A stretch of 63,111 nt of DNA, filler included, from Hausera hauseri (lineage: Eukaryota), in assembly GCA_046269625.1 (NCBI GenBank). It is 11 parts of 11 records of this genome, joined end to end, with 100 filler letters (N's around TTAATTAATTAA, not from the genome) between each part and the next. Parts side by side here need not be neighbours in the genome. Positions count along the whole stretch, not along the records: positions 41,514 to 46,472 come from JBJURY010378702.1; 10 more parts are not named here. One strand, 5' to 3'. Below the pieces are notes generated by a model. That model was given only the letters and a program-made list of their open reading frames with translations, was not told the origin of the DNA and ran no database searches. The stretch's first letter is position 1. Each line of letters begins with the position of its first letter. The position numbers and the translations under genes are program-made. This document shows positions 1,219 to 46,472 of this stretch, one piece after another.

Positions 1219-2503
1219 ATCTCCCACCAAGATTGTGGAAGAATTGATCAAGGATAACAATCTTCTATTTTCTCTTCAGTCTCAACTTAAGCATTTCTTA
1301 TCGTTAGATCATCTGTGATCTGTCTGTGTTCAGTTGCCAAAGCAACAAACTGTGAAGAGTGCAGAGAATACAAAACACAAGACATCCAACAGAGTCTTAT
1401 CCATTTAATGCCAACCTGTGATCAAATTGTAAATACCAAATTCTCCAACGAACCATACCTAACAAACAGTGCAATGAACAACGAATTTTTCAACAAAACA
1501 CTAAAAAACTTTCTCCGAAAACTCTTCAATAGCAAATCCGTAATGACAGTCGATTCGTTCATCAAACGACTGAAGAAACAGTCAAAAAAAACTGCTGCTT
1601 GGAAATCCGGTGAATAAATCGGATAAAATCGATGGACGAAAATCGGAAGTAGGTCATAAGAAATCCGATTTGAAATCCGGTCATGACGTCAACCGGTGAG
1701 TGTGGATGGACAACGAATAATTTTAATGAGATCATCAATACGTGTCATGAACCGATGAATAATTCGTATTCCGATTTAGAGCATTGCATATCAGAAATAC
1801 CAAAATGGTCGAATTGTGAAAATAAGAAATTGCAAGCTTGCTGCAGTGATTCCAAAGGAACCATATCGCCATGTGCAAAGACCTACAACTCACTCCATGT
1901 TAACCCCGAATCAGATTCCATTATATCCAAGGCATTTAAGTACAAAAGGAAAAAGATGTTAAATAGCAAATCGCCTATTCCATCGAAACGTCTAATCAGA
2001 TCAACTGCTGACCTATTACCAGCCAGACTCAAATCATTGTCCCCTCCAAATCGAATCCCAAATGTATCCATTGATTTACTTTCATTGAACCCTCTCACTG
2101 AGAAATCATCATCATATAGTCGAACAACAGCAGCAACCGGTACAAAATAGAAAGACAAATCCAAAATCAGCGACAACATCAGTAAGACCAATGACAAGAG
2201 TTCAGTGAAACAACCGAATATCAACAGTGGTACAATTTTATTCAATCTCAGGAATACTGTCAAACGACTACAAAAAATATCCAGAGTACTATTTCAAATC
2301 ATTTGACACCGCCTGAAACTCTGTTTAATATTTACCCGCGTATCAATTATTATAATTCCAAATCACCGAACTTTTTCGCCGTACGGATATACGAGATAAA
2401 ATGCATTTTGTAAAAATTGTACTATATATTTTTATGTTTACTCTGCAAAGTGAATTGAATCCTGAATTGCTTGCTTTGATTACTGAAGAACGACGATTAT
2501 TTT

Positions 2504-2929
2504 ATGAATTTTACAAATTTTACTACAATGGACATAGGCATTCGATATTTTAATCCAGTTGTGTTATTTTTGTCTATAATCATTGCATTACTCATAATTT
2601 TCATTGTCATCGTTATTGTCTATACTCAAGTATTTAAAAAGAAATCTCATGCAAATCGAAATGATTTAACTGAACCCATCGAATCTCTTCGGGTGCTTTT
2701 GTCACCGGAAAATCAAGATAATCCATCGGATCGACAGTTTATTCAATGCAAAGATATTTTGAATTACGATTGTATTTTTGATGTTTCAAGTTTGTTTTTC
2801 AATGAAAATAAAATCACCAATGGATGTTTGTTGTGGAAAGAAAATGAAATTATAGCTGAAACATTTTATTGTGAAATTCGTAAAGTTAATCTTGTAGTAT
2901 TGCCAATCCTGCAAATACTTTTGTTTTAA
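2504..2929 (+). CDS. Hypothetical single-pass membrane protein fragment
   Basis: 141-aa ORF with a long hydrophobic stretch (VVLFLSIIIALLIIFIVIVIVY) followed by KKK; no family recognised. Confidence 0.3.
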   Translation: MNFTNFTTMDIGIRYFNPVVLFLSIIIALLIIFIVIVIVYTQVFKKKSHANRNDLTEPIESLRVLLSPENQDNPSDRQFIQCKDILNYDCIFDVSSLFFNENKITNGCLLWKENEIIAETFYCEIRKVNLVVLPILQILLF

Positions 2930-6814: not shown

Positions 6815-7990
6815 CATCCCTCTGCGGAGCACAAACACCGACACCATAGCTGACGTTTTCATTCGCACATGGATTAGCAGGTTTGGATCATCTCGTTTTA
6901 TCATCACGGATCAGGGTCCACAGTTTGAATCCAACCTGTTCAAATCCCTTGTTAACCGATTGGGAATCCATCACATATATACTACGCCTTATTATCCCCA
7001 ATCGAATGGCCTCCTAGAATGTTTCCACCGTACACCGGAAACGTTACTAAGAATTCTTGCAGAGTTCAACAGTAGTTGGACAAATCTTCTTCCGTTCGTT
7101 CTGCAAAACTGGCAGAACACTCTGTCCACGTCTACAGGATGCTTACCTACTGAAGCCTTATTCGGAGCTCCTGTCCGATCATTATTTAAACTAACCGCAC
7201 TGGACGACACTCCCACAGATGAGACGATACGGGCGTCGCAAAATCACTTCGTCAAGGTCAGCAGGGATTCGTTCTGCAGGATACTTCACAAAAATAAAAC
7301 ATACTTACCCAAAGATTTGTACACGGCTAAATTCGTATGGCTGAAGAATCAGGCTCCTTGCGGTTTCCAGCCACGATACTTGGGGCCCTACAAACTGTTA
7401 CAGCTACACTTGCATAACGCCACCATCTTCAAAGATGGCAAAGACGGCAAAAAATTCACAGTACACATTACTAACCTAAAGCCAGCTTTCGTCGTCGACG
7501 ATACCATACCAACAGACACGACAAATTCTTTTCTTACTCCTCCACTCCCTGCTATCACTATATTTATTGCTACACCAGTCCCACCTTCCTCTTCCGCGCC
7601 TAGTCTTGCTCCATCATTTCCTACTCGTTTTACTTATATTCCTACCACTCTTCCTATCTCTACCACTACCTCTGTATCATCTTCTTCCACTCTTTCACTC
7701 AACACAATTCCAATCTCTACTCCAACCTTTTCTTCTCTTCCTTTATCCACCACTACACCTTTCATCACTCCTTCCTCCTCTAACACTCTTTTCAACGCCG
7801 TTAATTATCCGTCTTCAACAATCCGTCTTCCTTTTCCGTCTTCTTCTTTTCTTTATTTCAACTCATCTTCGCACGACACGATACCTACACCAAAATTTAA
7901 CAATTTTTTCCCAACCTAAATCTCCACAAACAAACAGATCGCATAAACACACAACACGCAGAGTCACATTCTGCCAGTATAGTAGGGAAA
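6815..7990 (+). mobile_element. Mag-like Gypsy integrase core and C-terminus, copy B
   Basis: WISRFG..IITDQGPQFES, TTPYYPQSNGLLE, YLGPY, Pro/Ser/Thr tail. Confidence 0.92.
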
Positions 7991-8098
7991 AATCAGTCGA
8001 AGGTATTCAACGTCTTATACACACTAAGCCCAACTGACAAACACTTTTCATTTTGCGGTTTTTCTCTCTTTTGTTCTTTATAGTTTTAACTTTGCCAC

Positions 8099-8203
8099 GG
8101 GGAGGGTGATGTTGTACCCGCATCTACGTTCCGCCCTCCAGCCCATTCGGTTGGGAACGGCCGGGTTTTCCGCTGCCGACGCGTCGGACACAGGCAGGCC
8201 CCG
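8099..8203 (+). repeat. Polypurine tract (8099-8109) and short 3' LTR from 8110
   Basis: GGGGAGGGTGA then TGTTG; shares GCCCATTCGGTT, CGGCCG and CGCGTCGG with 1123-1218. An alternative end is 8273 (AATAAA at 8224, ...CCACA). Confidence 0.6.
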
Positions 8204-14586: not shown

Positions 14587-14838
14587 ATTTTTAAAAAAAG
14601 TAGCCAATTTAATTCGTCTGTGATAATTTTGTAAGTCAAATTTAGTCTCTAATTGGTTGTTTAAGTTAAAATTTGGGGTTGGAATAAAGGTTAAGCCTCT
14701 CTCCAAAATTTGTTTCTGAACCGTACTTAATTGGAAGTTTTTAGCCAAATTAATAACATTTCTTTTGACCAGATTAGCTGTATTTTTATTACTTAGTTGC
14801 CCCTCCAACTGGTGGCTTATGGGGCTAATAAGTTTAAA
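14587..14838 (-). CDS. N-terminal part of the PLE RT ORF (continues at 20468 through the circular join)
   Basis: VINLAKNFQLS..QKQILERGLTFIPTP and YHRRIKL are conserved PLE N-terminal motifs; no ATG in this part. Confidence 0.85.
14795..14838 (-). promoter_or_regulatory. Candidate -1 ribosomal frameshift signal: T_TTA_AAC plus downstream stem
   Basis: Heptamer at 14838-14832 is in X_XXY_YYZ phase with ORF1; 6-nt spacer; GCCCC (14825-14821) can pair with GGGGC (14803-14799). The -1 frame is the RT ORF. Confidence 0.7.
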
Positions 14839-16847
14839 TACGAGGCCCAAAGGGCAAAAATGCTCTTAGCTGTGTCCTTTGTCCAGTGTATGTTGTCAGT
14901 CTCTGTCTTGAAGTCCGTGTTCGGTAATTTTGGTAGGTAAGGAAGTTTTGTTTTGATGTGATTATTTAAAATCTGCAATGTAGCTCTGTCTGATGAGCAC
15001 AAGTTTGGAGAATAGTTGATTAAAGGAATCCAAATGTCTGCATTTGGAAACCTTGTTCTAGCTACTCTGATGGCAGCTGAGAGTTGCCTAATCGCAGTTT
15101 CATTGGCTGATTGTCGTCTGTTATTAATGCCAAAAGACATCACCAACAATTTCAGCTCCAAGGAACCATCTGATTTTTTTAGCAACGCTTCAGCATGCCT
15201 AAAGTTAGCTCCAGGAAAGCACTCAATCTGGAGATCTTCAACTGAGTGAGTTGGGAAGTTAGCTAAATTGGAATCTCCAATTATTAGCCACTTTTTTGTC
15301 ACATTTAAACCCCAATCAATCAGCTTCCTTTGAGTGTTTGGATTCCTGTGTACTTTAAAAACTCCAACAGGTGTAGATGTTACTCTGTCAGCTAATTGAC
15401 TAGCTTGATCCAGAGCTTGGTCCATACTAGACTCCCTCATAAACTCATTCTCCAAACTTGCAGTGATCTGATCCTGTGCCTCGGGACTGCTGGTAAGGTC
15501 AACCACTGGGGTCACGTCCAACTGTCCAGACGGCAGCCTGTCCGGTGTTTGGGATGAGGTCGGCGTCTCCACGTTCTCCGGTGGATCAAAAAGATCAGCA
15601 GAACCCACAGACTCATCAAGGGCCTGCTGGCTCGAACTGGGCCTTCCGCACACCGGTCTGCGAACCACCGAGTCCTCACTGTCACTCCCGTCAGTCGTCG
15701 CCCCCCCAGTCCTAAAGTCAGTCATTGTTCCCACATCACACAATGTTTTGGTTTCATGAGCTGCAGCTAACATGCTAGTCTGAACTGCTACTCCTTTAGC
15801 TGCTCTCTTCCTTTGTGTGTTGGTTTGTGTGACTTTTTTAACACAGGTCTTCAAAATGTTCCTCACTTTAACCAAAACTTCGTCAGTCAGTCTCGTCAGG
15901 TATTTCTTGCACCTTGTTGTTGCTGTGTCAAAAAGTACAGTCCAGTCAGAGTCCAGTTGTCCTGAAAGTTCGCCTGTCATTTCGTCAATCTGCTTGTCAT
16001 AGTGAGCCTGAAGAATGCTAATAGTAGCATCCCCCCACGCTCTAGCGTTTTCAGCCACCAGTCTTAATGTGTCATCTGTTGGACAAGCTGGTTTCACCAT
16101 ATTGGTTAGATTAACCACCATCCTCGAAATCATTTTAGGTTCTGGCTTGTTGTCTGACAGACACACATTCTCACGGTGATGAAACAACTTTATCATCTGT
16201 TCCATTTTAGTAAGCAGTTGTTTATTAGCAGGCTCTGACTCGACTCTGACTGGCTGGTTCCTAACCCTTTTCAACTGGACCTGTCTGGGGACAAATCCAG
16301 CAGGCCTTCCTGCTGTCACATCAGCATAAGACCTAACAGTAAGGACCTGAGGACCAGGCCTGGCCTCAGTCTCACTCCTTGCTGGTTCATGTCGTTGAGT
16401 AACTCGTTTAGGCTTTGGTTGTGGATCAGCTAACCTCTTACGTGGTTTAGTTGCAGAATCCCACCTGCCTTCCTCGTTCCTCAACTCAACAAACTCCCTC
16501 CTTTTAAAATGTGCCCTCTCCGGTTTTCCCGGAGGGGCAGAGTCCCTACATCCGTAGGGTCTCTTTCTCTTTTCCCCTCTCTCACCTTGTCTGTCCCACA
16601 CACTGCTCCTTGGAGCTGCATTGTAGTGAGGCTGATTAGAAGGAGGCCGTATGTAGGCCCTTTGACCCAGGGGAGGAACCGGCCAGTCAGAGTCAAAGTG
16701 GCGAGGATGCCCTCTAAAAGGGGCATTAAAATGCCTATCCTCCCTCCAGTAGGGCTTCCGGCTGTGGGCACGCGGGGGGCGTTGTGGACGACGAGGTCGT
16801 CCTCTTGGCCCAACCATAGTCCACCCCTCCTCTTCATCAGACCTCAT
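14817..16847 (-). CDS. PLE ORF1 (676 aa): basic N-terminus, helical core, C-terminal SGNH/GDSL hydrolase
   Basis: Intact ORF with all four SGNH blocks: IIGDSNL, FPGA, FGINN, DNIH. Confidence 0.85.
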   Translation of the reverse strand: MRSDEEEGWTMVGPRGRPRRPQRPPRAHSRKPYWREDRHFNAPFRGHPRHFDSDWPVPPLGQRAYIRPPSNQPHYNAAPRSSVWDRQGERGEKRKRPYGCRDSAPPGKPERAHFKRREFVELRNEEGRWDSATKPRKRLADPQPKPKRVTQRHEPARSETEARPGPQVLTVRSYADVTAGRPAGFVPRQVQLKRVRNQPVRVESEPANKQLLTKMEQMIKLFHHRENVCLSDNKPEPKMISRMVVNLTNMVKPACPTDDTLRLVAENARAWGDATISILQAHYDKQIDEMTGELSGQLDSDWTVLFDTATTRCKKYLTRLTDEVLVKVRNILKTCVKKVTQTNTQRKRAAKGVAVQTSMLAAAHETKTLCDVGTMTDFRTGGATTDGSDSEDSVVRRPVCGRPSSSQQALDESVGSADLFDPPENVETPTSSQTPDRLPSGQLDVTPVVDLTSSPEAQDQITASLENEFMRESSMDQALDQASQLADRVTSTPVGVFKVHRNPNTQRKLIDWGLNVTKKWLIIGDSNLANFPTHSVEDLQIECFPGANFRHAEALLKKSDGSLELKLLVMSFGINNRRQSANETAIRQLSAAIRVARTRFPNADIWIPLINYSPNLCSSDRATLQILNNHIKTKLPYLPKLPNTDFKTETDNIHWTKDTAKSIFALWASYLNLLAP

Positions 16848-17147
16848 TTTTATTTATTTTCTCTTTTTGGAGATGTGTGTGTGTGTAAGTGTGTGAGTGT
16901 GGTGGTGGGGAATGAGTGTGGGAGTGCTTGTGAACGTTTTTTTAATTTATTTTTTTATTTTATTAATTTTTTTGTTTATTTTTCTAATTTTATGATTGTT
17001 TTTTGTCTTTTTTAATTTAATTTTATCAATTTTTTATTGTCTTTTTTTATTTTTATGAGTTTTTTTGGTCTTTTTAATTTATTTTTAATATAATTTGGAG
17101 GTTTGAATTAAAATGTGAGCACTAAAAAGTGCTGTTTATTTTTAAAT

Positions 17148-18467: not shown

Positions 18468-20545
18468 TTACGGCTGCGGCTCTGACGTCACTGGATCCTG
18501 AGTCCAGAAAGAGGCTTGGATTTCACCCAGACCCAGGTTTCGGGTCCAGATCCTCCTAGCTTTTTCCCTTTCGGACTCAGTCCAGCCGTCATTTTTTTGC
18601 AAACCAGTAATTTTCCAGTTTCGTGAGTCGTGTTTGTGAGTGCGTTCGGTGTAACGCTGTTTTGACCCACAAAGTTGGACAATTTCATCCAGCTTACCCG
18701 AGATTGTGCCCTCACAGTCTTCCACAAATTCAAAACCACAAAGCTTACAAGTAATTAAAAACACACAATTTTTACACCATTCCGTGAACTTTTGCACTAT
18801 CGGAAATACTGTTTTGTTGTGTTTGTTTTTAATAAAACTTGAGCTTCTCATTTTTTCAGACCATTTTTCTTGTTTTCTTTCCAATTTACTGCCAAATTTA
18901 GCTCTTACCAATGAATCACTTAAATTTTTATTTCTCCTGTAGGCTGCCACCACCGTAGTGTCGCTCAGCACCCCGGAGCTCTGCAGGTAAGTTTCAAAAT
19001 TGTTTTTAATTTGTTGATTAAACCAAACATTTTTTTCTGAGAAGGTGGTTATGAAGGGGATCTTATCACCCTCCTTCACTATCCTCCTCTCAGAAACGCT
19101 TTTTAAGCAGGCCTTTAAAAAGCCTCTTGAATAACCTCTCCTTAATAGGGAGGTAAATAAAATAATGACTGCTTCCCAGAAATCCTCCTTTCTGGTACAA
19201 ATCCTCTGAAATCTAATCAGTTGAGACTTTACAATACCTTTAAAGGTATGTTGTGGGTGATAACTAGATTTGTGTAACAGGGCGTGGGTGTCTGTTACTT
19301 TAAAAAACACTTTGATGCTCAACTGTTGTGTAGCTAAAAAGTCAGGTCCCTTAAACACAGTTGTGTCCAAAAAGTCAATTGATTTGTCATCAATGACTTT
19401 TTTGCACTTAATTGATGGATCATGGCTATTAAGGATGGAAATAAATTCCTCAAATTCCTCCAAGGAATATTCCCAGATTCCAAAGATGTCATCTAAGAAC
19501 CTGTGATAACACATGGGTTTCTTAGTGCACTTTAAAAGGACTTCTGTTTCCCATTTAGCCATGAAAATGTTGGCATAAGCTGGGGCAAATCTTTTGCCCA
19601 TAGCTGTGCCTTTAATTTGGAGATAAAATTTAGAGTCAAATTCAAAATCATTTTTAGTCAAATTTATTTCTAATAGTTCTAAAATAGCCGAATCAGGTCT
19701 AATTGGGTCAGGATATTTTGAAAAACATTCTCTGACAGCTTGAAGGCCAGATGGAATGTCAATGTTTGTGTACAAACTGTCAATATCAATTGAAAATAAA
19801 AAAGAATTTGGAGGGACTCTGAGACTTTTAACAGTTTCTAAAAAATGATATGTGTCTTTAATGTAGGATTCGTGTTTTGTACCAAGAGGATTTAAATAAA
19901 AATCAATAAACTGGGCTGACCCATAGGTCTCTGACCCACAATCAGACACAATGGGTCTCCCAGCAGGGACTTCAAATGGAATAGACCATTTTTCAGGTTC
20001 TTTGTGGATCTTTGGGAGAATGTAGAACCTTCTAGGTCTAATTGGGCCATCTGGTTTTAAATATTCTAGTTGATTTTTTGTTATAATTTTGTCATTTGCC
20101 AATTGCTCAAAAATACGGTTCACAATAGGGATTGTTTCTGGATAAATTGGTTTATCCAATTCTTTGTAATATTGTTTGTCAGATAGTTGTCTCAATACTT
20201 CAAATTTATATTGTTCTTTAGATAAGATTACAATAGAGCTGCCTTTATCAGCTTTTTTCAGAACAATATCTTTATTTTTTGAGAGCTCCTTAAGAGCTTC
20301 TCTTTCAACTTCTGACATGTTAGAAGGAGGTCTGAGACTTTCTACTCCTAGCTCACAAACTTTATTGTCTTCCTGAATTAGGTAAGCCACTTCAAGTGGC
20401 AAATCCGCTAAATCAGGTGACCATCTTGATTTTGCTGAGAAGGGTGGAGGCTTAGACCTTCCTGTTTCATTTTTAAAAAAAGTAGCCAATTTAATTCGTC
20501 TGTGATAATTTTGTAAGTCAAATTTAGTCTCTAATTGGTTGTTTA
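18468..20545 (-). CDS. PLE reverse transcriptase with degenerate C-terminal GIY-YIG domain
   Basis: FYILPKIHK, GRPIVS, IDIDSLYTNI, QIKGTAMG..FAPAYANIFM, RFLDDIF, FLD, SYHP.HTFKGIVKSQ; open ORF; ends with an eroded endonuclease (CVFLITCKLCGFEFVED). Confidence 0.93.
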
Positions 20546-20645
20546 NNNNNNNNNNNNNNNNNNNNNNNNNNNNNNNNNNNNNNNNNNNNTTAATTAATTA
20601 ANNNNNNNNNNNNNNNNNNNNNNNNNNNNNNNNNNNNNNNNNNNN

Positions 20646-23600
20646 GTGTGGAAGGCGAAAGAGAGAGAGAGAGAAAGACGGCGAAGAGGGACAAGGCGCA
20701 AAAGAGCAAGAAGATGGAGAAGGCGAAGGAAAGTGGTTGGAAGGTGGTATACAAGAGATTGGAGTGATGAAATGGGTAGATGTACGAATTGGTAAAGTTG
20801 AAGTGGTGTTTGGCGGAGGATGTCTTGTAAAAGGAGAAAGCAAGTTGTCACCAGGGGATGAAGGAGATGTGAAAAAGCTTGAAGGTGCAAAATCGGATGG
20901 GGAAAAAGAGGCTGAACTGTCAGAAAAAACTGAAGTAGAAGTCTTGGGAGAAAACGTGGGCGAAAGTAGGATAAAGAATTGAGCAGTGATAGAAAGTGAA
21001 TTGTTGGATTGCTGCGCGTTGTATAAAGATCGTGGAGAAGTGATTTTGATGGGAGACGTGTCGTCAATGAAGAAAGCCGGCTTAGCTTTGTTGATGTGGA
21101 CTGTTACTTCTTTGTCGTCTTTGAGGATGATGATGTGGGAGTGTAAACGAATTACTTTGTAAGGACCAACATACTGAGGTTGAAAACCACACGGCGTCTG
21201 ATTCTTTAGCCATACGAACTTGGAAGTATATAAATCGTCGGGTATATAAGGTTTATTTCCGTGTAATAGTCTACAAAACGAGTCTTTGATGATCTCAATG
21301 AAGTGTTTCGGTGCCGCTTGTTTGGTTTCGTCTGTAGGAATATTGTCCAGCTCAGTCAGCACGAATAATGATCTGATAGAAGTGCCAAATAATGCTTCTG
21401 CAGGTGAACAGCCTGTAGAAGTAGATGGTGTTTTCAGCCAGCCAAGCAGAACTTACGAAAGGAGTATAGTCCAACTGCGATTGTACTCAGCAAGGATTTT
21501 AAGAGACGTTTTCATTGTTTGGTGAAAGCGTTCGAGAAGGCCGTTCGATTGGGGATGATATGGTGATGTGTGAATGTGGTTAATTCCCAATCGATTCACA
21601 AGAGCCTTAAACAGGTTGGATTCGAACTGTTGATCTTGGTCCGAAGTGATGTGGCGAGGTGATCCAAACCTGCTGATCCAAGTGCGGATGACAACGTCTG
21701 CGATTGTTTCTGTGTTGGTGCTCCGAAGCGAGGCAGATTCTACCAATCGCGAGGAACGGTCCATTATTGTGAGGATGAACTGATAGCCGTTGTCTAAGGG
21801 TAGTGGGCATACAAGGTCAATGTGAACGGATTCAAAACGAGACGTGCAGGGAAAATGATATAGTGGTGGCTTTAAATGCTTAGTAACTTTGTATTTTTGG
21901 CATGCCAAACATTGCCTAACCCATGCCTGCACGTCAGAGCGCATCGATGACCATACTACCTGGCGTTGTAAGAGTCGAAAAGTGGCCTTGGCACCAGGAT
22001 GATGCAATGAATAAATGTTGTTGAATGCTTCTTTTTGAAGCGATTCAGAAAGGATGAGCTTAGGATTATTAGGTTTGTAAGTGTCAAAGGCCACACCGTC
22101 GATGGTTTTGCACGATTTAAAAATTGAAGGATGTTAGGAGGTGGCTGGTTTTGTTAACGTTTGGACTGAGGGAAAATTGGTATAAAATCAATCGAGCTGA
22201 CCGATCGGTACAGAAAGTCAGCTACTAAATTGTCGACTCCGTTTAGGTGCTTAATTTCAAATTTAAATGTTGATAAATACGACATATGCCTCTCCTGATG
22301 TGGAGAAGGCGATTTCATGGTGAGAATTTGAAGCAAAAGCTTGTGGTCCGTTTGTATTATAAAAGTTCGTGCAGTTAGCAGATGCTTAAAGTGTTTTACA
22401 GCAAGGACCATTGCAAGCAACTCTCTGTTATAGGTGGAATATCTTTGCTCTTGTGCCGTGAATTTTCGACAGAAGAATTCCAATGGCTCATGGGATCCAT
22501 TTTTGACTTGATGGAGGACAGCACCTACAGTTGTTGTGGATGCATCCGTGGTTAAGAAAAGTTCTGCATGGGAGTCTGGATAGGCCAGGATTTCCACGGT
22601 TTTTAGATTATCTTTGAGGTGATCGAAAGCGTCAACTAGCTCGGCGGTCCATTGAATAGGCTGTTTTTTCTTTCCAGAGCTTAATGATGCAAATGGAGCA
22701 GTTAGAGTGGAACAATATGGAACATACTTATGAATAAAATGCAATATTACGAGAAAAGAACGCATCTTTGTTGATGTACGTGGTAGCTGTTTGTGTTTAG
22801 CTGTGTTATGCGCTCTGGCTGAGGTTAATGTCCGGAGGAGCTAATAACATGTCCTAGGAAGTTGACTTTATGTTGAAAAAAGAGCATTTGGCGAAATTAA
22901 TTTGCAAAATGTTTTGGTGCAAGCGTTGGAAGATCAAACGTAAGTGTTCGGAGTGTTGTTTCGAGGAGGACGATGCAATTAAGATACCATCGATATATGG
23001 ATAAGCAAAGTTTAAACCTGATAGGACTATATCAATATGCCTTTGGAAGGTCTGGGAAGCGCTACGGAGTCTAAAAGGTATGAAAAGGTACTCGAAATGT
23101 CCAAAAGGTGTAATGACAGCTGTTTTCGGAATGTCTGATGGGGCTACCGGAATTTGGTGGTATGCTTTGTTCAAATCAATGCAGGAAAAGATGGTCGAAT
23201 CATGTAGCCTGTGAAGGATATCGTTGATTAATGGTAGATGGTAGGCATCCATTGTTGTTATGATATTGAGTTGGCGGTAATCACCGCATGGGCGAAAGGT
23301 ACCATCTTTTTTGGAACCACATGCAGTGGTCTACACCACGGGGATTTGGATCTTCTGATTATTCCTGATCTTTCCAGTTCAAAAAACTCTGCCTCACTGC
23401 CTGTCTGCAGCGAGGCGATAGTGGGCGGACCTTTTGCCGTATTGGTCTTTGATGTGCTATTACTATGTGATGGAAGGTGGATTGAAGTGGTACAAATGAT
23501 TTGCCCTTTTGCAGCAGACGCGTGCAGGAAGATGAAATATATTGTTGTTGATCAGAAGGCAACGATGAAAAGTTATCCGTTGGTGTCGATGCATCGTGAC

Positions 23601-37140: not shown

Positions 37141-40100
37141 GAAGGAATAATTAACTGAAATAGTGGTCTTTTTACGTACATTTTGGATAAGCTCGGTAAG
37201 TACAGACGATAGGTAAGATTGTAAGTGCGTCCGAAATCTATGTTACAACATTGCGTGTAATCTCCAAACTCTAAGTCACAATTCTTGGCTTCTTCTATTA
37301 TTACATCATCTAAAACAATTTGGAACCTTCCAAAATCGTGATGTGATTTCTGCGCCTTATATCCAACGCATGTGGAGTTGGGTGAGTAATAGGAAATTGA
37401 CATTGATTGTAATAATCCTTGAATTTCTCTGACCGATGGTTTTCTTTTCGCTTTACTAGCTTCCAATCTTGCTTCATTTTTCTGACTTCTGTAACTATCT
37501 TGCAGTGTAAGTTTGTTATGCCCTCTTTTAGTTTGTATTCTCGGAACATAAGAAGCAATTAGTGCTATTGCTAAAATTATCTGAACGTACGATATCGGCC
37601 TAGCAACTACTGAGGAAGTTTTTATTTTGCGTTGGCGTAAATTGTCACGTTTCTTGGGTCGTATCTCTGTCTTGACAACTCTTTAAACTAATACAACTTC
37701 TTTCTTTCCATTTTCGTTGATATACACTGTGGTTGGCGTGACTTTGGTGACTTCGTATGGTCCTCTGCCTGTGCGAGTTAATTTTAATGAGGTACCTTTT
37801 TTGGCTACTGGGTAATGTAAATGGACCCATTTTTTTGTTCTATATCATGCGGTTTTGCTTTCTTATCGTATTGCTTTTTAAACTTCTCTTGATATTCTTG
37901 GGATAATTCTTTGGCGATTTCCCAACACTTTTGCAATCGCGTTTGTAACACTTATGCGAAGTTTTGTTCTAAATCTTTTAGGTTAACTGTGTATGGCGTC
38001 ATTCCTACGTCCGTGGGTAACACGGCTTCGCGTCCATACATCATGAAGAATGGTGTGAATCCTGTCGCTGGATGTGGTATAGTATTAATTGCAAATTGGG
38101 TTTCTTCTAAAAATTCGTCCCAATCTTTTTGGTCCTTAGCCACTACTGTTGATAGTATGCGTATGACAATAGCATTCATTCGTTCGACCATTCCATTGCA
38201 CTGAGAGTGATACACAGTAGTCGTCAACCGTTCGATTTCAAATATCCTAGTAATTTTCTCGAATAGTTCACTGGTGAAATTTTTTTCTCTGTCCGTGAGT
38301 ATGTGGTCTAGGGGCCCGTATCGGCAAATAGATCTTTTCACTACGGCTTCTGCTAAGGTCTTGGCCTTTTTATCGATTAATGATATCAACTCGACGAAAT
38401 GAGTTAGTCGATAAACACACGTCAAAATATACTTATTGTTCTTGTGAATCGTAGGGAAAGGTCCTACGATGTCCATCGACATGGCTTGTATGGGCCTATT
38501 AGGTACGTCAATTGGTTTTAACTCGGCCATGTAATTTTTCGTCTTCTTTTGCTTAGTTGCACATACTTTGCAAGCATTTACCCAATTTTTCACATCAATA
38601 TAGATAATAGGCCAAAAATATTTGTTCATTAGTCTTTCTAATATTTTCTTCCAGGACATGTGTCCGGCCAAATATGAATCATGTTTGGACATCAGTACTT
38701 CAGTTCGTAAGTCTTTTGGAATAATTATCAGTTTCCTTCCTTTCCGTTCGTAATATAAAATATCTGCATTGCTCTTGTCACTAAAAATGCAGTATTTATG
38801 TCCGTGTCTGCGTAAATGTTTCTTTAACTGTCGTTCTTTCGGTATAACATCCTTTTTAACAAATTCTATACTCTGTTGGATGACTTTATCCCTTCTCTGA
38901 TCTATCGAAATTTTAATTGCTTTATCCACTGTCAAGACGCGTTGACGATATATTATCTCTTCGAGTTGGCTTTTCTTTATTACAGTAATTGCACTGGTCT
39001 TGGTCTTTAATTTCCATAATGCGTCAGCGTCTACATGTTTATTCCCTGGCTTATATTGGAATTCAATATTATATCTGGAGATTTCTTCAATCCACCTGTT
39101 AAATCTACATGTTGGTTTATTTGCTCTGCCTTTTAAGGTCGTAACGGCCTTGTGGTCAGTGACAATTATAATCTTCTGCCCGTACGCATAAACGTTGAAG
39201 TGTCGAATTGTTTCCTTTACAGCTAGAGTTTCTAATTCAGTAACAGAATAGTTTTTCTCGGCCTTCTTCAAGGAACGTCCTCCATAAGCAATCGGATGCT
39301 CTAGTTCCTCATCTTCTCTTTTCTGCGCTAATTCGTATCCAACGCCTTCCTTACTGGCATGTCTTGATTATAAAGGGTAAGTTAAAGTCTGGATAATGTA
39401 AGACAGGTTCGCTTGTTAATATCTACTTTATCTCATCGAAGGCCTTTTGTTCGACGTCTGTCCATTTCCATTTAATTCCCTTCTTAAGTAAGCGATATAA
39501 GGGTGCATTTATTTTTAAATTATCTGGCACATAAGTTGCATAATATCCAAATAGTCCTAACCAGCGCCTTAGCTCTTTTGGATTTTGTGGTTCCATACAG
39601 TCTGATATTTTATTTAGCAACGATTTATCTGGTTTTGATCCTCCTTCTCCAACTATATGGCGAAGGCAGGATACGGCGTTTTGAGCCCATTTGCATTTGT
39701 TTGGATTTAATTTCACTCCGGATTGTTCGAGTCTTATTAATGTATGCTCGATATCTTTTAAGTGTTCCTCTTCTGTCCTTGACGCTATCATTAAGTAATC
39801 TAAGTACACAAAAGCATGATCCAGTCCCATTAGCATTTTGTTCATCATTCTCGTGAATATGGCTGGTCCAGTAGCAATACCGAACAGCATGACATTAAAT
39901 TCATTAACACCATCGTGCGTTTTAAATGCTGCCTTATAACGGTCTTTGTCCTCTATCTCCACTTGCCAGTATCCAAATTGCAAGTCCAAAGTGATAAACC
40001 TTTCGCTCCTGAGAGTCTATCAAATGCTTCCTTTACTGATGGCAATGGGAAAGAGTCTTTCATCATAAGATTATTTAAAACTCTGTAATCAATACAAAAT

Positions 40101-41413
40101 CGATGTTTCGTGGTACCTTTCTTCTTAATCATGAGGATTGGTGAATACCAAGACCTATAGCTAGGCTTGGTTATGTCTGCCTTAAGCATTCGTTCGACTT
40201 CTTTCGTTATTTCGGGCCTTAATGAATGCGCCGGAGGGTACCATTTCGGCGTCTTCTGGTCTTCCAAATCTATTTTCTCGTTTGACTCTGGCTTTTTCTT
40301 GAGTGGAATAGTTAGTTTTAATGCTTTCCCTCTACCGATATCTTCTTCGTCCTTAGCAATAATCGATTTATATCGGCATAGCAATTTGTAGAATCGACAA
40401 TATGACTCAGGCAAAAATTTAGTTTCGACATTGAGCAGAAATTCGGCATACTTATAAGGCTTTTCCTCAATCGTTATTGACGATATTCTATACGTGTCTT
40501 CTAAAGTAGTACAAGCATGGAACTTGACATATGTCTGCGCGTTATTAGCTATTCTGATTATTACTCGGCCGGAGTGTACTTTTGTGAGTACGTTACTGAG
40601 AGTTATATTCGGATACAATGTTTCCTTTAATTCAAAATATACCGGTTGATCATCATCTTGCTGGATCTGAGCATAAATTGTCATTTCTCTCTTTGGTGGA
40701 ATATTTTCGTCTACTGGTATCCATACATTTCCAAATTTTCTATCTTTCGCGTTTTTCACGCCTTTATTTGGCCTGATTTCTACCAGTTTCCCTGTTTGTA
40801 AATCAATTGCTATATTTGGCAGTCTTTTAGTCAATCACATCCTAAAACTACGTCGTCGGTTAATTGCTCCATAACTGAAAATTCGTGACTGAAAAACTGT
40901 CCAACTATTTGAACTTCTGGGTTCCATTTAAACATTAATTTCGACATCTGACCAAAAGCTCCTGTACTTCCTGGATTCTTCGTAGACGGTGGCATCTTCG
41001 CATACTTTCAGATCCATTAAGGAGTATCTCTGTCCCAGCTTAAACTTATCGCAGTCGTAGATGGTTACAGCGCCTATATGCTTAATTATCATCATCTAGG
41101 TGAGTAACCTAATTAGCCAATTCGATTCGTTCTTCCGACATCCAACGTCCGCTGTTGTCAAACTACGTAACATATCGTCGAGTTTATTGCTGTTTTGTTT
41201 GTCTTCGTTCTTATCAAATAGTCTTGAGCAATTTACTTCGCAGGGCAATCTTCTTGCCGCTTTTCATGCTAAGCTTATAGCTTTATTGATTTCATTTTCT
41301 CGATTAGGATTTATTTTGATAGCTAGGTATAGTAGTACTTTCCTCAATTCCTCATTGGTATTCTCTACCATGACCTTTTCGATTACCGATTCGTCGATTA
41401 AATTACTTTTCGA
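37141..41413 (-). mobile_element. Env-carrying Gypsy, copy 1: env N-terminus, internal deletion, PR end, RT, RNase H, integrase, post-integrase ORF
   Basis: RFCIDYR.LN, YLDY, NYSVTELE, H....AGH..C..C, MDIVGP, LTD, NGMVERMN; frameshifted. Confidence 0.93.
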
Positions 41414-41513: not shown

Positions 41514-44500
41514 TTTTTAAGTAAGCGATATAGAGGTGCATTAATCTTTGAATTATCTGGTACATAAGTTGCGTAATAACCACAGAGTCCTAACCAGTGT
41601 CTCAACTCTTTCTGATTTTGTGGTTCCATGCAATCTGATATTTTATCCAATAATGATTTATCAGGTTTCGATCCTCCTTCTCCAACTATATAACCAAGGT
41701 AGGATACGGCATTTTGAGCCCATGTGCATTTCTTCGGATTTAATTTTAATCCGGCTTGTTCTAATCTCATAAATGTGTGTTCAATATCCTTTAGGTGTTT
41801 TTCCTCCGTCCTCGATGCTATCATCACATCATTTAAATATGCAAAGGCATGATCCAGTCCCATTAACATTTTGTTCATCAATCTTGTAAATATGGCTGGT
41901 CCGGTAGTAATACCAAACAGCATAACATTAAATTCGTAAACGCCATCGTGAGTCTTAAACGCCATCTTGTAACGGTCTTTGTCCTCTATTTCCAATTGCC
42001 AATATCCGGATCGTAAGTCCAGAGTGGTGAACCATTTCGCTCCAGAGAGTCTGTCTAGAGCCTCTTTTACCGATGGTAATGGAAAAGAATCCTTTATCAT
42101 AAGATTACTTAAGGCTCTGTAATCAATACAAAATCGGTGTTTTGTGGCGCCTTTCTTTTTAACCATAAGGATAGGCGAATACCATGATCTATAACTAGGT
42201 CTAATTATATCGGCCTTTAGCATCCGTTCGACTTCCTTTGTTATTTCGGGTCTTAGCGAATGTGGTGGAGGGTACCATTTTGTCATCTTCTGATCCTCCA
42301 GATCTATTTCTTCATTTGAGCCAGGCTTTTTCTTGAGCGGAATAGTCAGTTTTAACGCTTTCTCCCTACCGATGTCCTCTTCATCTTTAGCGATAATCGA
42401 TTTGTAGTGGCATAGTAATTTGTAAAATTGACAGTAAGTCTCAGGTGAAAACTTAGTGTCAATGTGAGGCGGAAATTCAGCATATTTATAAGGTTTCGCT
42501 TCGATGGTTATCGACGATACTCTATACGTGTCTCCTAGCGTAGTATAAGCATGGAGCTTAATAGGAGTTGGTGCATTGTTTGCTATTCGAATTGGTGCGC
42601 GAAGGAGTGTACTTTCGTAAGTACGTTACTGAGCGTTATATTTGGGTTTAACGTTTCCTTTGGCTCGAAATATACTGGCTGATCGTCATCTTGATGAATT
42701 TGTGCATAAATTATTATCTCTGTTCTTGGTGGGATATTCTCGTCTACTGGTATCCACACTTCTCCAAATTTTCTATCCTTAGCGTTTTTCACGCCTTTAT
42801 TGGGTCTGATCTCTATTAATTTACCTGTTTGCAAGTCAATTGCTATATTTGGTAGCCTTTTTAATAAATAGTATCCCAGAACAACATCGTTAGTTAATTG
42901 TTCCATGATTGCAAATTCATGTCGAAATGTTTGTCCAGCTAATTGGACTTCCGGGTTCCATTTAAACATTGGTTTTGACACCTGACCAAAAGCTCCTGTA
43001 CTACCTAGATTTTTCGTAGATGGCGGATATAACTGTCCTTTTACCATTTTAGGTATTGAATCATTTTGATGTAAGACATTTCAGAACCCGTATCGATTAG
43101 TTCATAAACTTCCCAGTCCTCAATAATGATTTTGGTGAAGGGTCTTCCTTCGATCACGGTTCCAAAACAATTTGCTGCTACTTTCGAACGTTTAGTCGCT
43201 GATATTTTGTGTCCGTTTATTCGTACGTCTGGGGCTGATAATATGTTTCCCGATAACTGTCTTAGTTCTTCATTTGGATATAATTCATTGTTCTCTACAT
43301 GTAGTTCTTCCATTTCATAAGTACTGATTAGCGGCTCTCTATTGTTGGTATGTAGTTCAGTATGTTGGAAGGTTTTTGATCTTGGGTTGTCCCAGACCGT
43401 CGATGTAGTTTCAATATTTCTAGGTTCTCTCTGTAAATACAACATCTTTGGATCATCTGCAGCTTGCCGGTAACACATTTTCTATAGAATTCAGTATCGT
43501 TTTGTTCCTTCATAAGGATCTTCTACACTAATTGTTCCTTTATAGATTTCCGTCTGATATGAGCTCATGGATCGTTTGTTACAATTTTTGTTGAATTGAG
43601 CGGTAGGAGGTAACATGGGTAATGGCGTTCTAACTACAGAGTACACCTTGTGTCTATTCATTCTTGAGAATGCTTCTCCTCCCTTAGGCTCGTCATCATC
43701 TGAATTATTTCTTCGTATATTCGGTTTTGTAGACCTCCGCTTCCGTAGGAATATCGGTCTCCCTCTTCGTTTTCGATTATAGTAACCGACATGACGTTCT
43801 ACGTCCGATTTCCATCTGCTTTCTTTGTACGCCTTTAGGAATTTTCCAAAAGGCGTTATGATTGCAGTCAAAATTTTACATGAGAATCCGGTTAGTGTAA
43901 ATAATTCGTACCCGTTTATTACTGCTTGGATGACTGCCTTAATCATTTGTATCAGAAAATATATTGCCAAAAATACGGATGCTGCTTGTCCGAAAATCAA
44001 AAATCTTCCCCAAATTTTGTAGAGTATTTCCGTTGTTACTCTTTGATAGTGGTTTACGCCAAGTAACGATTTCCATTTAGCCTGATATCGTGTGTCGTCT
44101 ACTACAGACGCCATAGCTCGATTTAGTTCATGTGTGTATTGTCGTGGAAAGGCAAGGAATTGTCTGAAAGCCTCGATTTCTTTTGGTCTATATATACCTT
44201 TCGACGAGGTATCTTAAAATTTATCGTCTGTGATTCCTTTTGCAAGATTAATTCCTGTCAGTTTGTTTGGAGAGGCGATAATACCTCCATTTGGCAGGCT
44301 AACCCAATCCGTTTCACTTCGTCTAAACATGGATTCTCCTAAGCTTGCTTTACAATTCTTCAAGATAGTCGGTTGGGTAGCGTTATCCAGTAGCACCCTT
44401 GTCAACGGTGTAGCTAATCTCGGAATATTTTGATAGATAACAGGAAGTTCCTGAATGCAACCTTTTTCTTCTACGTTGATGGGTACTTCTCTCTTTTCAC

Positions 44501-46472
44501 ATTCATAGGTTAGCAATACTTCGCCCATTACTCGGCCGAAAATTTCTTCTCTCATAGGAATTATTGGAGAAGCCAATTTCGGGTTTGCATGTATAAAAGC
44601 CGTTTTAGTTCTCATGATTTCTGTATCTAATTTACAATCATTCGTTATCATTTTGTGATATAATTCAGTTATTCCGACTTGTCCTTTGTAACAAAAGTAA
44701 TCATCCCTATTCTTCAAGTAATCCTCAATGCGGACGTCTTATGTTTCTAAATTATAAGTTTTTGTGCTTATTTCCGTTTCGGCTACAAAGAACGCCTCAT
44801 AGTTTGTGGCGAACATTACTACGTCTCAACGAGTCATCATCTCTTTATTTATAAATTTTAGTCCATGCGGATCCGAGATCAATATGGTAGGCGTAGGTTG
44901 TTCCGATACATCTTCTCGTGTCCTTGAATTGGTTTCTAATTTGTCCACGTATCTCTTTCCTGTAGTCTCATTGAACTTTAGCTCTTTAATTTTAATGAAA
45001 TTACAATTCCTTCCAGAAGAAGGTTCCCATATTAGAATCGAACTTCTAAAAGCACAGGTTCCATCTTGTAAATGGCATTTTTGGTTTTCAGTATATAACT
45101 TGGTAACACTATGAAACTTTACCTTCTGCGATCGAATTTCCGATTCGTAAAAATCAACAACCACCACGTTTGATTCTAATCCCTTTCCGGTATCATATTC
45201 TGCTCCATTACGATGTCCGCTATGCATGTCTAATCTTCCGGCCATTACCTTGTATGCCCTAATTATTTTTCCTGGTTGCATACCATCCCATTGTATTCTC
45301 ACAGTTTCCTTGGCTTGTTTGCAGTGCTGGCGTTCTAAGTTCATTGGAATTAGCGGAGTAGTCGGCTTGATTATAAATGAATGTCTATGAATCAACCCAC
45401 AATGAAAAATACTACGCGATCGTTTCAGCATACATTCCATTCCATCAAACGATATCAATTTTTGTTGTTGATACAGGAAGTAACTTTTCTCCCTTGTTGC
45501 TAGTTTGTGCGGTCTGGCATCCTCGCATACTTCTAATTCCATTAAGGAATATCTCTGTCCTAAATTAAACTTATCGCAATCATATACGGTTACCGTGCTT
45601 ATATGCTTTATTAGCATTATTAAGGTGAGCAAGCTGATCAGCCATTTTGATTCGTTTTTTTGACCTCCAACGTATGATGTTGTCAGGTTACGCAACATAT
45701 CGTCGTGTTTATTATTATTTCGTTTGTCTTCTTCCTTGTCAAATAGTCTTACCCAATTTACTTCGCAAGGCATTCTTTTTGCTGCTCTCCGTGCTAAGCT
45801 TATAACCCGATTGATTTCACTCTCTCAATTAAGATTTATTTTTATAGCTAAGTATAGCAATACTTTTCTCAATTCTTCATTCGTGTTTTCCACCATAATC
45901 TTTTCGATTACCGATTCATCAGTTAAATTTCTTTTTTGATAGTTTAAAACGCGAGCTTCGAATCATTTTGGCTGCATCGAAAATTATCTTTTCTTTGTCG
46001 TCCAACATATCGCCCTGAAAACTAGAATAATTCACAATTCGTATTAAATTTTTCATTAACTCACTTAATTCTTCATTCTCTGTGCTAAGAGCTGGGATCG
46101 GCATCTGTTTCAATTCTCTAATTAACTCTCCGTTGTATTCTATTTCTTCTCGCACTTTTCTAGGCCTACCTACTGGGTGTTTCTGTCTTGGACCTTTAGT
46201 GATTGATTCACTTAGTGGTACTAAGTTTATATCGTATTGTTCCTTATCTTCGTCCGTTTGTAAATACTCAAAATACAGGGCAGCGTCTCGGACTCCCATG
46301 ATTTGTCCTACGCATTGTTCTGTTTTAGCTTTACGTGTAGCTTCTTCTTTTGTCTGTTCGTTAGCTATTATTACCACTATCCGATTTGTTTCATCAGGAA
46401 TAATCCCGACGTCTATTAATTGTTCCAAGTCATCTAATATTCTACCTCTAAAATAAAATCTGTAGTTTAACT
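41514..46472 (-). mobile_element. Env-carrying Gypsy, copy 2: ORF X, glycoprotein, PR, RT (both ends missing)
   Basis: LIDTGSEMSYI protease and RT (LDLRSGYWQ, YLND) are homologous to copy 1; the glycoprotein lies upstream. Confidence 0.92.
43830..45650 (-). pseudogene. Chuvirus-like class III (gB-type) fusion glycoprotein with in-frame stops
   Basis: Signal peptide WLISLLTLIMLIKHIST, then VYDC..YSL..LEVC, C...R....CG..H, C.LQDGTC, LIW..C, GEVLL.YEC, C..ELPV, TPLTRVL, and membrane region WGRFLIFG..FLAIYFLI..INGY.L....GFS. All pieces are in one frame. Confidence 0.82.

Follow-up and report, generated by a model that had tools for sequence, protein, structure and literature searches.

Elements that carry an envelope gene (env) ahead of the polymerase gene (pol) have been described in two bodies of work close to the present locus: the giant gypsy-like long terminal repeat (LTR) retrotransposons of planarians known as Burro/GYPSM1 (Arkhipova and Yushenova 2019, PMC6431247), and GAG-ENV-POL errantiviruses whose ENV is of the HSV/gB type (HSV, herpes simplex virus), from Nematoda, Bryozoa, and Platyhelminthes (Chary and Hayashi 2026, PMC13524379). 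The latter survey also includes ENV-GAG-POL elements with a short gag in oribatid mites and cites nematode endogenous retroviruses (NERVs; Sacco et al. 2022, PMID 35550022) as placing env before pol, and chuvirus glycoproteins are carried by the BEL/Pao elements named Anakin (Dezordi 2020, PMC7642597). Here we describe an env-first Ty3/gypsy element in a 63,111-nt stretch of DNA (hereafter, the window) from the genome assembly of Hausera hauseri (GCA_046269625.1), composed of short contigs with N spacers between them, those of the element being 4 to 5 kb long. The env-bearing copy occupies contig B (41514-46472) and a second copy contig A (37141-41413); these are separate contigs, with no tandem pair. 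NERVs are reportedly restricted to nematodes and are said to have a continuous gag-env-pro-pol open reading frame (ORF), and in Anakin elements env is said to follow pol.

A first-pass annotation of the window had presented a chuvirus-like fusion glycoprotein upstream of and in frame with pol as a departure from the rule that such env genes sit 3' of pol, a premise that overlooked published exceptions (PMC6431247, PMC13524379). The novelty it implied is not supported, the layout having been in print since 2019 for Burro/GYPSM1 (PMC6431247) and since 2026 for errantiviruses (PMC13524379). An env located before and in frame with pol is already known, and the present copy, a decayed member, therefore adds a family and no new principle. 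It is highly probable, in our judgment, that contig B holds a mutated copy of a high-copy Ty3/gypsy element with a fusogen between a ubiquitin-like region and the protease and reverse transcriptase (RT), whose working copies likely encode one Burro-like polyprotein.

The Fusogen Shares a Frame with the Protease Catalytic Motif

A single minus-strand frame of contig B, from 45938 to 43041, spans 967 codons and is interrupted by seven stops (45827, 44828, 44741, 44216, 43493, 43484, and 43043; read with X at stops), while the remaining two minus-strand frames across the env region are full of stops. The ORF starts at 45773, 44717, 44114, and 43478 all lie in this frame and only point stops separate them, as the first-pass annotation had stated, and the frame stays open for about 55 codons upstream of 45773. 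Pfam, hydropathy, and a profile made from the protease domains of relatives (22 of them) bore out the proposed order, namely region X, hydrophobic signal (aa 100-118), ectodomain, transmembrane (TM) helix (aa ~646-670), linker, and a DTG motif at aa 949-951 (Table 1). In this copy, the claim that env is in frame with pol could be confirmed directly for part of the protease only. The two protease halves (profile matches at 43142-43067, independent E value [iE] 0.0027, and 42966-42846, iE 2.8e-5) lie in two frames and the RT of contig B in a third, so that the direct in-frame link reaches only to the catalytic motif. The protease frame break near 43063 and a further break near 42600 are considered below, as is the ORF at 46470-45922, which is located 5' of the env frame beyond another frame break. 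A capsid profile run over the whole window gave no gag (best iE 1.1); thus no gag lies between env and protease, as proposed.

Table 1. Features of the two element copies, in window positions
Feature	Positions	Strand	Basis or remark
Contig B: C-terminal half of ubiquitin-like domain	46374..46470	-	Profile of relatives; truncated by contig end
Contig B: remainder of upstream ORF (P0002) with GRPRK motif and helical stretch	45922..46373	-	ORF reading
Contig B: region X, coding, at the Bcl-2-like position of relatives	45642..45938	-	dN/dS, profile
Contig B: internal signal-like hydrophobic segment	45585..45641	-	Hydropathy 1.92, aa 100-118
Contig B: ectodomain of a class III fusion glycoprotein of the chuvirus G / herpes gB type, broken by three stops	44004..45587	-	Pfam, AlphaFold2, Foldseek
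Contig B: TM helix, then weaker hydrophobic segment	43848..43985	-	Hydropathy 2.06 and 1.48
Contig B: basic variable linker, predicted cytosolic	43143..43847	-	Two copy-specific stops, 43493-43491 and 43484-43482
Contig B: aspartic protease in two frames	42846..43142	-	Protease profile
Contig B: possible dUTPase-like segment between protease and RT	42500..42845	-	dN/dS 0.04
Contig B: Gypsy-type RT, truncated by contig end	41514..42499	-	Pfam RVT_1, E 1.6e-32
Contig A: region X, signal, first ectodomain residues, deletion junction	40990..41413	-	81% identity to 45515-45935
Contig A: protease C-half, RT, RNase H, integrase	37686..40992	-	Pfam RT_RNaseH, Integrase_H2C2, rve
Contig A: post-integrase frame with signal-like segment, about 37595-37545	37141..37682	-	Hydropathy 2.13; truncated by contig end

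Residues 100-708 matched the Pfam family of Monjiviricetes fusion glycoproteins (PF24664, E 3.3e-56). An AlphaFold2 model of the ectodomain (monomer, 102 sequences, X at its three stops 44828, 44741, and 44216) reached a mean predicted local distance difference test (pLDDT) score of 88.3 and shows a five-domain gB-like fold with a 48-residue central helix. Foldseek searches of the PDB returned herpesvirus gB chains throughout the list, the best being gB of varicella-zoster virus (E 6.7e-13, TM-score about 0.43), and searches of BFVD returned glycoproteins of chu-like viruses (best E 4.7e-32, TM-score up to 0.72). Queried by sequence, the PDB gave no match to P0001 or P0002. Consistent with the class assigned at first pass, profile, model, and structural matches agree that the env ectodomain is, as modeled, a class III fusogen of the chuvirus G / herpes gB type, with fusion activity predicted.

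The signal-like segment lies directly ahead of the YDC that begins the ectodomain, a position shared with relatives. At the other end, the TM helix (about 43985-43929) is followed by the weaker hydrophobic segment (about 43904-43848), and the next 60 residues have 12 K/R vs. 4 D/E. Both membrane segments were present in 12/12 relatives examined, the second scoring 1.0 to 1.6 with a central lysine or arginine; strong TM hydropathy (1.7 to 2.4) was found in 13/13 sequences, and K/R exceeded D/E behind the TM helix in 11 of the 13. Given that RT and integrase have to be cytosolic, we interpret the second segment as running along the membrane.

The Linker Stops Are Specific to This Copy

A public sequencing run, X1, carries the family: 19,610 of its contigs align to contig B, with 30/30 bins covered. 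No RNA run was listed among the carriers. X1 contained 0.32 of the sampled words and may be the source of the window or a close relative, so it counts here as further copies of the family and as no independent study; length differences were listed only from 10% of depth upward. At the first base of linker stop 1, another base accounted for 1659/1678 of depth (99%; 54 X1 contigs), and at that of stop 2 for 1020/1130 (90%; 40 X1 contigs). The stops at 43491 and 43482, whose specificity to this copy had been put forward as a check, are therefore peculiar to it.

These data bear on the alternative that Env ends at the linker stops and that pol belongs to an ORF of its own or to another, nested element. 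Two stops nine bases apart invite that interpretation, as do the fall of depth in the linker and the departure of 47 to 49 X1 contigs from the stretch near 43715. The departures indicate that subfamilies vary in the basic part of the linker. Yet 99% and 90% of the depth lack the stops, no length differences were listed among X1 contigs over 43420-43560, X1 contigs bridge the stop region, the relatives are continuous, neither contig contains a long repeat, and in copy A region X is joined to that same family of pol, the two being equally diverged. A separate pol ORF or nested element is largely refuted by the copy-specific stops, the bridging contigs, and the continuous relatives, and we regard it as extremely unlikely. 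The linker gave no Pfam, capsid, or CCHC match, and a sigma-70 scan of it stayed at chance level, with a bacterial-type model that does not apply to an animal. No stop, LTR, or promoter conserved between env and protease, no nested or tandem arrangement, and no protein other than a class III fusogen emerged, these being the outcomes named in advance as counting against the first-pass proposal.

Relatives Encode the Same Order in Intact Single Frames

A word-based search for longer relatives found none, though HMMER then gave many: 478 matches among 1.84 billion representatives. We scanned 14 of the 17 best matches for domains, leaving out three short fragments, along with four weaker long matches. 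A protease followed env in one chain in 11 of the 14 top relatives, five of these continuing to RT, and the other three end at or in env; in P0086, one of the weaker long matches, env is located after integrase. The distance from WG[KR]F to protease was 305 aa in the B copy vs. 130 to 390 aa in relatives. Since the relatives are gene calls, frames were checked on DNA, where L001 and L002 contain stop-free frames of 3,426 and 3,703 codons, respectively. The frame of L002 encodes, in order, a gag-like start, two CCHC motifs, a ubiquitin-like domain, env, protease, RT, RNase H, and integrase. These intact frames, together with the env-protease chains, favor the single polyprotein suggested at first pass, and the gag-env-pol order proposed with it is supported by the relatives, in full by L002.

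Pfam gag or zinc-knuckle domains were found ahead of env in P0008, P0013, P0017, and P0019, and gag upstream of env in these and in L002; contig B ends before that point, which is why gag is absent from the window. It is conceivable that the family has no gag in front, or has a short gag between env and protease as in the ENV-GAG-POL elements of oribatid mites, and the lack of any gag in the window would fit, such elements being described in PMC13524379. However, the linker lacks capsid, CCHC, and Pfam matches, and the ubiquitin-like domain, in which contig B begins, comes after gag and zinc knuckles in P0008, P0017, and L002. We consider this arrangement very improbable.

The RT of contig B was 42 to 47% identical to that of env-first relatives and grouped with most of them (support 98/99) in a tree of 14 rows that has no outgroup, named Metaviridae references, or named Burro RT. 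Between protease and RT, the best PDB match of 42500-42845 was a dUTPase, weakly (E 0.88).

Several features of the relatives were recorded alongside. At least two tandem protease-like domains follow env in P0003, P0004, P0007, P0008, P0013, P0153, P0157, L001, and L002; P0153 (4,844 aa, with an ankyrin match) has eight D[ST]G motifs, and some D[ST]G motifs lie after integrase in P0004 and P0153. Separate downstream ORFs with an RNase_T exonuclease match occur at L001:10617-12104 (E 1.4e-5) and L002:12085-13470 (E 0.0011), and the stretch ahead of env in P0015 looks, by eye, like the RNase_T ORF. P0005 (HBK71150.1), a full polyprotein from env through protease, RT, and RNase H to integrase, is labeled as a Flavobacteriaceae genome protein and probably comes from a contig of animal origin placed in a bacterial bin. 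P0098 joins immunoglobulin domains and a chuvirus-type glycoprotein in one predicted chain, either a capture or a gene-calling artifact.

Upstream of env: A Ubiquitin-Like Piece and Region X

In several relatives, the env signal is preceded by a ubiquitin-like domain, by a GRP[RK]K motif, and by a helical domain that has GGW at its end. A ubiquitin-like profile made from seven relatives had its best window-wide match at 46446-46374 (iE 0.039), a score reached by 0/1000 shuffles. Alignment A1, made of parts of four relatives and three window pieces, matched ubiquitin-like chains in the PDB (best E 0.0041); its match to Bcl-xL was weak (E 1.5). The GRPRK motif of P0002 lies near 46170-46156 and recurs as GRP[RK]K ahead of env in P0004, P0007, P0017, and P0153; we take it to be AT-hook-like.

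P0002 is parted from the env frame by a break near 45932, where a length difference was seen in 15 X1 contigs (295/1952 of depth). Gag might share an ORF with the ubiquitin-like domain, with X-env-pol in another ORF that is reached by a programmed frameshift. The B copy does change frame there in an A-rich run, and the length difference involves only that small share of depth. Against such a frameshift, the offset differs from the usual -1 slip; indels in the homopolymer may be spread over positions, each below the 10% listing limit; and the ubiquitin-like domain and env occupy one frame in P0008, P0014, P0017, P0157, L001, and L002. Copy A cannot decide the matter because it begins just downstream of 45932. 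We judge a programmed frameshift improbable and retain the single polyprotein.

Region X occupies the place of the relatives' Bcl-2-like domain, for which Pfam PF00452 (Bcl-2) was found in three of seven relative rows (best E 7e-5). The relatives' Bcl-2-like profile, placed on X, gave scores reached by 9/1000 shuffles for copy B and 5/1000 for copy A, and X lacks the GGW motif. A model of the upstream region of P0017 was of low confidence (pLDDT 46); Foldseek placed Bcl-2 family chains in nearly all of its top rows, none of them significant, and a wide VIA search with the model gave generic helical repeats only. A sequence search with that region returned only P0017 itself, and ESM Atlas held no usable match for P0002 or for the Bcl-2-like region of P0017. 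Region X may be a degenerate Bcl-2-like domain, as its position and profile scores suggest.

Copy A and Purifying Selection

Copies A and B were 81% identical in two blocks, and in A a deletion of about 2.49 kb joins the start of env to the protease C-half; copy A is therefore without ectodomain, TM helix, linker, and catalytic motif. The first-pass statement that both copies share one order applies to copy A in part: X and the env start precede pol, but the env-protease junction is deleted. Region 37686-40992 of copy A is collinear with P0004, P0157, L001, and L002, and the Ty3/gypsy order of protease, RT, RNase H, and integrase is present when copies A and B are taken together, collinear with relatives.

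Between the copies, the ratio of nonsynonymous to synonymous substitution rates (dN/dS) was 0.14 for region X (97 codons), 0.10 for the signal and env start, and 0.04 to 0.09 from protease to RT, vs. 0.84 and 1.02 in shifted-frame controls over the stretch of X, signal, and env start. The env frame is under purifying selection for X, signal, protease, and RT, and the breaks in the B copy are decay. Near 43063, the protease break was accompanied by a length difference in 10 X1 contigs (1803/2734 of depth), and the break near 42600 on contig B is absent from copy A, in which an ORF (40834-39956) reads through the region uninterrupted.

A Predicted Second Membrane Protein Follows Integrase in Relatives

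All seven relatives with a complete C terminus (P0004, P0005, P0015, P0153, P0157, L001:9041-10279, and L002:9994-11205) encode a signal-like segment, an ectodomain, and a TM helix after integrase, a predicted second membrane protein; P0010 and P0019, whose chains end earlier, were left out of this count. The post-integrase regions of L001, L002, and P0157 are alike, those of the remaining relatives barely so. Copy A has its signal-like segment at the same post-integrase position as all seven, and its post-integrase region showed no sequence similarity to relatives at iE < 0.01. The ectodomains had no credible match in PDB or Pfam, and their fibronectin-like look is by eye only. No description of a post-integrase membrane protein turned up in the literature that we consulted, which was not searched specifically for it and did not extend to subscription papers, Repbase, or figure panels.

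Other Features of the Window

A second gypsy family is present in several copies (20646-27232, 27333-32851, 1-1204, and 6815-8192), with 83 to 90% identity between two long contigs, a low-complexity stretch after integrase, and no env seen. SGNH domains are located upstream of some Penelope-like elements; in the window, minus-strand regions 14820-16853 and 18471-20597 contain a 678-codon ORF with a weak GDSL/SGNH hydrolase match (E 0.0046) that adjoins RT-like fragments (RVT_1, E 2.8e-4). At 1291-2926 (plus strand), pieces of a cysteine-rich ORF with a hydrophobic segment after them gave no convincing Pfam match and are possibly a decayed membrane protein. A host gene for a CDK5RAP1/MiaB-like tRNA methylthiotransferase, 50 to 65% identical to those of many animals, lies at 34500-35571 (plus strand). 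It indicates an animal host, and no named species stood close to it.

Discussion

If working copies of the element encode one polyprotein, the whole chain, comprising Gag, the ubiquitin-like and Bcl-2-like domains, Env, protease, RT, RNase H, and integrase, would be translated once, the internal signal threading the ectodomain into the lumen of the endoplasmic reticulum. Signal peptidase would free the N terminus of the ectodomain, with the upstream part staying anchored by the signal helix, and the TM helix would halt transfer and leave the basic linker and Pol cytosolic. Going by hydropathy, Pol would thus be tethered to the fusogen tail, hanging from it until the element's own protease releases linker and Pol. 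As a single chain made at one membrane, Gag, Env, and Pol would be produced 1:1:1, an output that would tie together particle assembly, envelope, and the packaging of enzymes with no need for a frameshift or splice. In the complete relatives, a second signal after integrase would start another single-pass membrane protein. For the B copy itself we infer an upstream gag; the topology, the processing, and any infectivity are predictions of the same kind.

Several observations weigh against this reading. Contig B contains three frame breaks and six internal stops, and for that reason its single frame is a reconstruction; of the depth, only 15% visibly lacks the break near 45932. Neither gag nor LTRs nor a primer site were seen within the window, with its contigs of 4 to 5 kb, and env is only about 30% identical to its nearest relatives. 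The RT clade also includes an element of the window in which no env was seen, as well as a partial row, and it leaves out two env-first relatives, P0015 and P0019. The second hydrophobic segment could be a second membrane pass, which would change the topology. For region X, the Bcl-2-like profile match is not significant window-wide, and alignment A6 had no Bcl-2 match in the PDB.

More speculatively, and doubtful as we consider it, env-first gypsy elements may be a widespread lineage of true enveloped viruses whose envelope consists of two proteins made from one chain, with a class III fusogen before Pol and, after integrase, an unrelated single-pass protein as its attachment partner. Pol would be retained between these two at the cytosolic face, and a membrane-anchored Bcl-2-like domain would keep the producer cell alive; the present family would extend that design to an unrecorded animal group. 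The herpesvirus gH/gL, which acts with gB, offers an analogy for the proposed partner of the env-first fusogen. Should the post-integrase protein and the tethered-Pol topology both prove true, they would amount to a retroviral assembly route with a fixed 1:1:1 ratio of Gag, Env, and Pol. The string of ubiquitin-like domain, Bcl-2-like domain, and fusogen is present in 10 to 11 kb ORFs of unrelated public contigs, and for all complete relatives examined the analysis suggests that integrase is followed by a second membrane protein. It also links the Burro and GAG-ENV-POL errantivirus literatures, which are unconnected in the main text of the 2026 survey (PMC13524379); the words polyprotein, fused, Bcl, ubiquitin, and Burro are absent from that main text, and its supplementary file 2 has no row for the one planarian element that we looked up.

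The Anakin elements share the fusogen family (PMC7642597) and are BEL/Pao elements, whereas gypsy-type env-first elements stand nearest to the window RT. With the GAG-ENV-POL errantiviruses, the present element shares a Ty3/gypsy pol, a gB/chuvirus-like env before pol, and an ectodomain bordered by a signal or by two hydrophobic helices, as these are given in PMC13524379, and a gB-type env is located directly upstream of pol in the B copy. That survey concerns intact elements, while the present copy is decayed, and the comparison is by description, not alignment.

Burro is described in planarians, whereas the host gene of the window points only to an animal. The account of Burro consulted here (PMC6431247), on which the following points rest, gives lengths above 30 kb, LTRs, and MATH, BIR, Smc, and ankyrin motifs, which the present contigs are too short to show, and contains no mention of a second membrane protein after integrase. 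Common to both are a high copy number and an env that is akin to the fusion glycoproteins of mononegaviruses and is set in frame between gag and pol; decayed copies bearing stops and frameshifts are also reported for Burro, in Dugesia japonica. The location of env in one ORF between gag and pol extends from env to protease in the B copy and is complete in L002. Ahead of env, Burro has a ubiquitin/SUMO-like and then a BCL2-like domain; here the former is present as its C-terminal half only and the latter is degenerate at best. The dUTPase-like segment between protease and RT in Burro has a candidate, weakly matching counterpart. Compared by description, the RT tree holding no Burro sequence, the present element is Burro-like in how it works.

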